Origin: a virus
Taxonomy: Duplodnaviria; Caudoviricetes
IMG/VR virus record: IMGVR_UViG_3300010392_001176
Coordinates: 1,815-65,814 of that record
Reading direction: 5' to 3' (one strand)
Length of the DNA stretch: 64,000 bases
Both the position numbers and the translations under genes were made by a program. The number at the start of each line of letters is the position of its first letter. The stretch's first letter is position 1. Positions 55,181 to 55,749 of the stretch are shown here, piece after piece. A model generated the notes under the pieces. That model was not told where the DNA came from, did no database searches, and saw only the letters and a list, made by a program, of their open reading frames with translations.

Positions 55181-55749
55181 CATCGCAATCCATTTCAGAA
55201 CAAAACATGACAATACTCGGCGGCAAATCAAGGCATATCCCGCCCGTCCAGAACGGCTCTCGTCGCCAAAACAAAACAGTACAGGGCATTACTCGACGAC
55301 ACAACAAACCAACCCGCCCCGCATCATTTCACTACGCAGCATAACATTACTCGTCGTCATGCCATCACATAGCATTTCGGTACAGATCACATCTCGACGG
55401 CACTACACTCCGCACCAGCACATCACTCTTCTCGTCGCCACAACACTTCATCGCAGTTCTCGAAGTCAAAACGAAACGGCCCACCACACCCCACTCCGCG
55501 AAGGCAACTCACCCCGATCCGTAACATCACACCTCACCTCATTCCGCGAAGTCAGCTCATCACGCGACACCTCTACGCGGCACACACCACTTCTCGACGG
55601 CAGGGCAACCCACCACACACCATATCATCCCACCACTCGAAGGCAAAACGTTCCACCACGCGGCACGGCAAATCTCGAAGTCAGGACGCTTCACAACTAT
55701 CCACGGCATGTCTCGTCGCCAGCTCCGAACAGCTCACGGCACTCCATTT
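55181..55749 (-). ncRNA. Pentamer-coded guide array (14 blocks, 93 NNN-YG units, 13 octamer delimiters) paired with the RAMP gene
   Basis: Plus strand: all 93 pentamers begin with C (72 CA, 15 CG, 3 CC, 3 CT); delimiters C(T/G)CGN(A/C)GN; abuts RAMP stop codon. Expression as RNA is inferred. Confidence 0.85.

Follow-up and report, generated by a model that had tools for sequence, protein, structure and literature searches.

A probable VIPR guide-RNA array with octamer punctuation in a temperate phage from marine sediment

Introduction

Directly downstream of a small gene in a phage genome lies a tract built of 5-nt units, which is interrupted again and again by an 8-nt string that shifts the period. 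What is this tract, and what do the octamers in it do? A sequence-only reading of the same DNA took the octamers for probable processing or register-reset signals, that is cleavage sites or filament caps separating guides of 20-50 nt.

VIPR (Viral Interference Programmable Repeat) is related to CRISPR and silences DNA by means of guide RNAs; it was reported for the first time in 2026. Its Vipr proteins are ancestral RAMPs, phage-borne and found outside CRISPR loci. According to the available text of that study, the VIPR RNAs (vrRNAs) consist of 5-nt units with a constant GGY and a variable NN, followed by a constant 3' tail, and DNA recognition skips one target base per unit. Seven types are distinguished there, the repeats NNNGG, YNNNG and NNNNG are given, and both 'staggered' tail-less arrays and ribozyme-interspersed arrays are described (10.64898/2026.04.26.720920). 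The same text lists six vap families for the seven types, from which we infer that one VIPR type may be without a vap. In the structure, as the available text of the companion paper describes it, one protomer covers one unit, and two adjacent protomers grip the GGY via the Gly-rich loop, the thumb and helix 1 (10.64898/2026.04.26.720927). The VIPR of phage SUSP1 silences a satellite's recombinase and its natural function requires vap1, according to the available part of a further report (10.64898/2026.10.15.759431). Moreover, 21 VIPR-like clusters with non-GGY motifs are mentioned in the accessible text of another one (10.64898/2026.10.21.760802).

Results

The phage and the surroundings of the array

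The window, that is the whole analysed stretch of 64,000 nt, covers nearly all of a 65.8-kb contig. It encodes a large terminase subunit, a portal, a major head protein, an endolysin, RecT/RecE and a tyrosine integrase, and it belongs to a temperate phage from marine sediment. The DNA runs containing the stretch come from marine-sediment, subsurface, marine and sediment metagenomes, and no RNA run is on record among the sequencing runs that contain it. The features discussed below are listed in Table 1. The genes flanking vipr and array are a cupin and a 198-aa ORF without assignment, and no vap accessory gene adjoins vipr in the window.

Elsewhere in the window there are two giant ORFs, at 12456-23555 (+, 3,699 aa) and 45181-51273 (+, 2,030 aa), neither of which has a PHROGs match at E 1e-5.

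Table 1. Positions of the array and of related features in the window
Feature	Position	Strand	Description
vipr-like gene	55751..56374	-	207 aa; single-domain Cas7/Csm3-like RAMP
Predicted vrRNA array	55181..55749	-	14 guide blocks and 13 octamers; units N1N2-x-Y-G on the RNA strand
Octamer starts	55216, 55259, 55292, 55350, 55393, 55431, 55459, 55497, 55545, 55593, 55636, 55674, 55712	-	
Degenerate first delimiter	55750..55757	-	Overlaps the vipr stop codon; ends GAG like the rest
Putative guide block B5	55553..55592	-	8 units; N1N2 = antisense of codons L-H/Q-D/E-L-R-H/Q-T-F/L
Phage's own tyrosine integrase	57022..58152	-	Pfam PF00589, E 4.5e-18

Layout of the octamers and units

Thirteen octamers of the form C[T/G]CGNNGN (+ strand) were found at 55216-55719, with exactly the sequences and multiplicities that the sequence-only reading had listed. 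As it had also stated, positions 1, 3, 4 and 7 (+ strand) are invariant in 13 of 13, and all of them read N-C-(G/T)-N-C-G-(A/C)-G on the RNA strand. The 12 start-to-start spacings (43, 33, 58, 43, 38, 28, 38, 48, 48, 43, 38 and 38) can all be written as 8+5k (k = 4-10), for which the chance is about (1/5)^12. The 5-nt phase is therefore moved by 3 at every octamer, just as claimed before. Searched as the regular expression C[TG]CG..G., the pattern is matched at 81 places on the + strand of the 64-kb window, 14 of which fall within 55149-55719. This is far above chance expectation. The 14th of these matches, at 55149, is out of phase with the array.

In the pentamers between the octamers the first base (+ strand) is C in 86 of 86 cases, and the second is A in 65, G in 15, C in 3 and T in 3. 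Three elements had been missed before, namely the out-of-phase match at 55149, a 14th block of 7 units past the first octamer (55181-55215) and the degenerate first delimiter at the vipr stop codon. The blocks of the array have 4-10 pentamers each and comprise 93 units in total, with C in first place on the + strand in 93 of 93. Altogether the array is a single uninterrupted tract of 569 nt which starts 1 base past the vipr stop codon.

The tract was not reported by Tandem Repeats Finder. Rfam in permissive mode found no family in the region 54000-57000, so there is no hammerhead between the guides, and scans for promoters and terminators gave results at chance level only.

Beyond the end of the array there is a 23-nt direct repeat with copies at 54923-54945 and 55155-55177, which are 96% identical and contain an internal 7-nt direct repeat. 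The distance from the last block of the array to one of the copies is 4 nt, and there the octamer-like match at 55149 overlaps the edge of the repeat. The second copy immediately precedes a ribosome-binding site and an ATG near 54907, belonging to the next minus-strand ORF (54421-55017), for which no family match was found. This ORF, called from 55017, probably starts at that internal ATG, which has a good ribosome-binding site. The repeat might serve as an operator or mark a terminus.

The RAMP protein next to the array

A search of the protein collection gave 305 homologues of the 207-aa protein, all of them without a Pfam domain, and Pfam and PHROGs scans of the protein itself gave nothing useful. 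Two motifs are conserved in the family, the helix-1 motif and a C-terminal Gly-rich loop, and the residues H85, K87, D88, H138, R193 and Y200 are invariant.

The AlphaFold (AF2) model of the protein has a pLDDT of 88.7 and a pTM of 0.81. All top Foldseek matches of this model are Cas7-family RAMPs, namely type VII Cas7, Csm3 and Cmr4. A VIA search against representatives gave a Z of 12.2 to type VII Cas7 (rmsd 2.4, 131 aligned) and of 11.5 to Csm3. The solved Vipr of SUSP1 is known here by its sequence entry and is absent from the fold libraries that were searched.

A homotrimer was predicted with an ipSAE of 0.48, compared with 0.00 for the best control. The value passes the mark set for such predictions, which 20 of 30 solved homo-pairs attain as against 1 of 23 single chains. 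This pass may reflect likeness only, because Cas7 filaments are solved. The runs have at least 39% of their contacts in common, with a partner pLDDT of at least 73. The predicted interface is head-to-tail and brings the Gly-rich loop of each copy into contact with helix 1 of its neighbour.

An hhalign comparison of the family with the SUSP1 Vipr family gave a weak match (E 0.0028, probability 10.9%), which is colinear over 130 columns and aligns the Gly-rich loops. The profile against the single SUSP1 Vipr sequence gave E 0.093, and a tblastn search of 50,697 phage records had no matches. In the hhalign columns D177 and W178 of SUSP1, the residues that read the guanines G1 and G2 there, stand opposite G191 and E192, and R179 of SUSP1 stands opposite the invariant R193. 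The replacement of D177/W178 by G191/E192 would fit different constant bases. Modelled as a small RAMP with a Gly-rich loop, and encoded outside a CRISPR-cas locus, the protein is what would be expected of a Vipr protein, which is a small single-RRM RAMP with such a loop and a thumb.

Conservation of gene and array in relatives

We compared the locus with its relatives, i.e. 49 viral loci (IMG/VR contigs) and 3 genomic loci with 32-59% identity. When the 5-nt periodicity of G was followed along the gene's strand, most of these 52 loci had its maximum downstream of the homologue. After removal of 7 duplicate loci, 46 non-duplicate loci including the window were counted. An array punctuated by ...CGAG was found within 400 nt of the gene end, on the gene's strand, in 40 of the 46. 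Five of the 46 have no array there, and in two of these five the contig ends near the gene. In the remaining locus (L051) the array is periodic and punctuated by another mark. The arrays of the relatives have sizes of about 0.4 to 2.1 kb; they begin with a delimiter at or overlapping a stop codon, and a delimiter often closes them too. Apart from the RAMP, no protein is shared by all loci.

L051 (L051:6594-6970, a Phycisphaerales MAG) is the most distant relative, with 32% identity. Its array has a longer constant punctuation string with a phase shift of 2, which suggests that the punctuation mark co-varies with the protein.

The unit of the family was read from 325 selected junctions, in which the G is fixed by the selection itself. 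Within the unit N1-N2-x-Y-G, more than 85% of the Y positions hold a pyrimidine and about 45-56% of the x positions a G, and the base composition of N1 and N2 is close to uniform. The family consensus of the octamer is N-C-G-Y-C-G-A-G, with C at 77%, G at 89% and Y at 85% for the unselected positions, and the unit preceding the octamer ends with TG in 89% of the 325 junctions.

A small conserved ORF of 80-130 aa without Pfam match is found beside the gene in 34 of 53 loci (for example L047:6686-7063, L046:3505-3756 and L037:7430-7690). It sits between vipr and the array, except in L014 and L037 where it follows the array, and in many loci the first octamer overlaps with its stop codon. The window has no such ORF. 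We regard it as a candidate vap-like accessory gene of the clade.

Targets of the guides

The block B5 shows a coherent target. Its codon motif is box II of the tyrosine recombinases. We queried IMG/VR with the N1N2 of each unit plus one free base, by exact matching, and obtained 105 matches. LHDLRHT or LHELRHT is present in the antisense frame of 67 of the 105. In 57 matches LH(D/E)LRHTF lies in a frame that is open over at least 100 aa, and a further 9 matches have LQDLRQTF and belong to one 309-aa family. Of the 96 matches that lie in long ORFs, 55 run antisense and have the wobble position as their skipped base. Pfam Phage_integrase was detected in 12 of 12 tested ORFs carrying the LH(D/E)LRHTF matches. 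The x base of B5 equals the target base in 4-61% of the matches, depending on the unit; thus x is not a pairing position.

From these matches, B5 reads as a guide against the catalytic box II (HxLRHT) codons of the tyrosine integrases of other elements. The phage's own integrase agrees with B5 at 9-10 of 16 informative positions at best and would thus escape it. Self-targeting was not seen: no window guide matches the 65.8-kb contig above shuffled controls (NN or NNN, with 0-3 skipped bases).

Four window guides (B5, B6, B11 and B13) were scanned against public collections. B6, the second guide with 16 positions, has 37 scattered IMG/VR matches without a common family and was used as background. 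B11 has 0 matches in IMG/VR and 3 incoherent ones in metagenomes, and B13 has at least 120 matches from mixed families, with no coherent target among the matches listed. When the 13 window guides other than B5 were compared with the integrase loci, none was above chance. A target was thus identified for 1 of the 14 window guides.

Another example of a targeting guide was found in the relative L020. Its 10-unit guide between two octamers (L020:3995-4044) agrees at 20 of 20 N1N2 positions with the vipr genes of seven rivals; two of these genes lie in duplicate loci, and six are distinct (L028, L019, L036, L033/L034, L035). The matched sites are the Gly-rich-loop codons of these genes, and the x base agrees with the target at 2-6 of 10 units. 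The vipr of L020 itself encodes the same ten residues and has only 17 of 20 N1N2 matches, because it uses synonymous codon families for Arg (CGN to AGA) and Ser (AGC to TCC). No further vipr-targeting guide was significant. As judged from these alignments, the published two-read, one-skip rule holds for the window guide B5 and for the L020 guide.

We also pooled 354 guides from all loci and searched them against 1.1 Mb of sequence, where no rule was enriched overall and only individual long matches were informative. An avoidance of stop triplets in the antisense direction (29 compared with 61.6 expected; 282 of 313 blocks stop-free compared with 255 in the null) is largely a depletion of TA/CA and was set aside.

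Octamers as boundaries of guides

The B5 match and the L020 match each span exactly one block, from octamer to octamer. A population variant of the array, compared over 55546-55749, was found on a contig from another study and sample (run X5), on which the gene differs at 4 places. The array there is without exactly 55636-55673, i.e. an octamer of 8 nt and a block of 30 nt. It is also without a 48-nt unit, and 110 other letters replace part of the first, gene-proximal block. This comparison is a weak one, being based on one contig with a depth of about 4. It suggests that new guides may arise by an exchange of whole octamer+block units.

The octamers therefore bound the guides, because the matches fill whole blocks, the arrays start and often end with octamers, and the variant differs by whole units. 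The claim that they separate discrete guides is further upheld by the Cas7-like fold, the predicted head-to-tail homo-oligomer and the conservation of gene and array. In a comparison of arrays for gain or loss of blocks as against drift, which had been proposed as a check, the variant contig speaks for whole units, and the near-identical locus pairs have identical arrays and are therefore uninformative on drift. Among homologous blocks (11 pairs) there is more drift at Y than at N1, N2 or x. This pattern is only suggestive, as the pairs come from few families, and the excess of Y over x remains unaccounted for by x being unpaired.

Discussion

Relation to VIPR and to CRISPR

The system behind the array, to which the sequence-only reading gave no name, is VIPR and not a CRISPR variant. 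Several features that mark VIPR were found here by computation: the fold, the viral location, the lone gene, the 5-nt array on the gene's strand and the non-contiguous targeting. We hold it to be highly probable that the region is the guide-RNA array of a phage-borne VIPR system, in which the octamers are constant punctuation between guides.

The reference for type II is Escherichia phage SUSP1, with Vipr (YP_009199429.1), vap1 and four vrRNAs. Like SUSP1, the phage of the window has a lone small RAMP gene and 5-nt units with two variable bases on the gene's strand. The reading of the target as NNxNNx in codon register, the avoidance of self-targeting and the choice of competing mobile elements as targets, among them a recombinase gene and the vipr genes of rivals, are shared as well. 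In contrast to SUSP1, the constant trinucleotide is x-Y-G instead of GGY, there are 4-10 units per guide instead of 9-16, and an 8-nt mark is found in place of a 3' pseudoknot tail of 40-60 nt, so that the hallmarks of type II are lacking. Furthermore, 14 guides are packed into one 569-nt tract and no vap is adjacent.

Among the VIPR architectures described in the available text, the closest are the staggered vrRNA arrays, which are tail-less and in which one vrRNA ends where the next starts; like these, the array has fewer fixed bases than GGY. The unit order Y-G-N-N-x differs from YNNNG, in which the fixed pair is G-Y, and falls under NNNNG. The non-canonical clusters GAC/NN, CAC/NN, WGT/NN and TGH/NN also combine a Vipr-like fold with 5-nt-periodic arrays (10.64898/2026.10.21.760802). 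In the accessible text of that report their motif has about 10 repeats, none of them is clearly x-Y-G and 8-nt punctuation is unmentioned. Likewise, the available VIPR texts, without the images of figs S17 and S18, contain no description of an 8-nt punctuation mark, and the word 'delimiter' occurs 0 times in 10.64898/2026.04.26.720920. The octamer architecture may already be drawn in figs S17 and S18 of that paper. VIPR itself has been known since April 2026; what is added here is the octamer grammar, the x-Y-G branch following the 1-nt skip, and the anti-integrase guide.

How the octamers may work

Orientation and homology point to transcription of the array on the gene's strand, and what is said here about RNA ends and processing is drawn from the same two sources. 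By homology, the Vipr-type RAMP would polymerise along the minus-strand transcript with one protomer per 5-nt unit, hold the constant x-Y-G and present the variable N1N2. The latter would pair with DNA in a two-read, one-skipped manner, fitting codons with a free wobble base, and the block between two octamers would be one guide. The octamer can be parsed as a scaffold-like NCG, a fixed YC dinucleotide and a scaffold-like GAG, hence as two units minus one NN, so that the missing NN would give the phase shift of -2 (= +3). Such a register break might end one filament and start the next. A single transcript could then yield many guide particles, for which long tails, ribozymes and Cas6 would be dispensable. 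Filament assembly on the array RNA, silencing of DNA and possibly cleavage at the octamers would be the expected steps.

The octamers could be endonucleolytic processing sites, cut by the Vipr-like RAMP or by a host RNase, with the guides keeping part of the octamer as a handle. We regard this as quite possible, if tentative. The constant length and core of the octamer are in line with it, as are the invariant His, Lys, Asp, Arg and Tyr of the RAMP family, although these residues are equally explicable as RNA-binding ones. Between the guides there is no ribozyme or long tail, the Rfam search being empty. Self-cutting has precedents in Cas6 and in the Cas7.1 domain of Cas7-11. On the other hand, the octamer has no hairpin of the kind usually recognised by Cas6 enzymes, because the RNA is C-poor. 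The available text of the VIPR study offers evidence in both directions: the legend of fig. S18 speaks of 'processed vrRNAs' in tail-less staggered arrays, but sRNA-seq confirmed only the ribozyme and the single-vrRNA architectures (10.64898/2026.04.26.720920).

Alternatively, the octamers could remain uncut and act only as register breaks or nucleation sites, which would make one long transcript a string of separate short filaments, each in search of its own target. As two scaffold-like triplets minus one NN, the octamer would break a strict 5-nt protomer lattice, and its presence at the start and often at the end of arrays fits an assembly signal flanking every guide. However, those vrRNAs that have been characterised are separate molecules about 100 nt long, as far as the available text describes them (10.64898/2026.04.26.720920). 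Furthermore, 14 guides with different DNA targets tethered to one RNA would be topologically awkward. We consider an uncut array rather unlikely. A related idea, that Vipr itself reads the octamer as punctuation where its lattice stops and restarts, the RNA perhaps being cut there by the RAMP, is speculative and also somewhat doubtful.

It is very improbable that the tract is a degenerate or novel CRISPR array, with a repeat shrunk to 8 nt and serviced by a lone Cas7. The array shares with the Cas7/Csm3 backbone of class 1 CRISPR the RAMP fold, a short constant part and, as predicted, a filament that kinks the RNA periodically. Constant and variable parts alternate, and PADLOC finds a weak Csm4 match for the RAMP (E 9e-4) as its only one. 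In class 1 CRISPR the crRNA 5' handle has a length of 8 nt. The comparison of the octamer with this handle, drawn by the sequence-only reading, stands as an analogy only; a CRISPR repeat is absent here. Unlike class 1 CRISPR, the period is 5 with sequence-specific fixed bases instead of 6 with any base, and CRISPR spacers show nothing like an internal 5-nt period in which a base is fixed in 93 of 93 units. The target is read with gaps, i.e. non-contiguously, and block lengths range between 20 and 50 nt. Long repeats, Cas6, Cas5 and an adaptation module are absent, nor were the marks of class 1 found, which are direct repeats of about 23-50 nt with unconstrained spacers, and cas1/cas2 or a multi-subunit effector. 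PADLOC detected no cas neighbours in the window, and no other neighbouring gene tested fits a defence model. The lack of an adjacent adaptation gene had been pointed out before, and it agrees with VIPR loci, which are described as minimal.

Least credible is a signal on the + strand or in the DNA, such as a C-rich, G-poor Rho-loading (rut) tract or protein-binding sites with the octamers being incidental, which the strong C>G skew of the + strand would suit, but the array orientation is fixed relative to the RAMP gene in relatives, the known SUSP1 vrRNAs are G-rich and on the gene's strand, and the variable bases match real genes in codon register.

Implications of the array grammar

The bench work on VIPR has so far been done on type II only. 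The locus described here shows a compact array grammar, consisting of an 8-nt mark and an x-Y-G scaffold, which may be of use in the design of multiplexed arrays. It also provides direct sequence evidence that the two-read, one-skip rule reaches the divergent x-Y-G branch. B5 points to a concrete natural target class, namely the universally conserved HxLRHT codons of tyrosine integrases. This leads to biology that can be tested: does the phage block its rivals from integrating or excising, and does the octamer serve as the signal for processing?

If the proposed mechanism is true, a dozen or more guide particles would be made from each short transcript without a repeat hairpin, Cas6, ribozyme, tail or separate promoter. 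The octamer punctuation would then be the simplest array grammar known for an RNA-guided system, and with motif-level guides such as B5 the phage could silence whole classes of rival elements.
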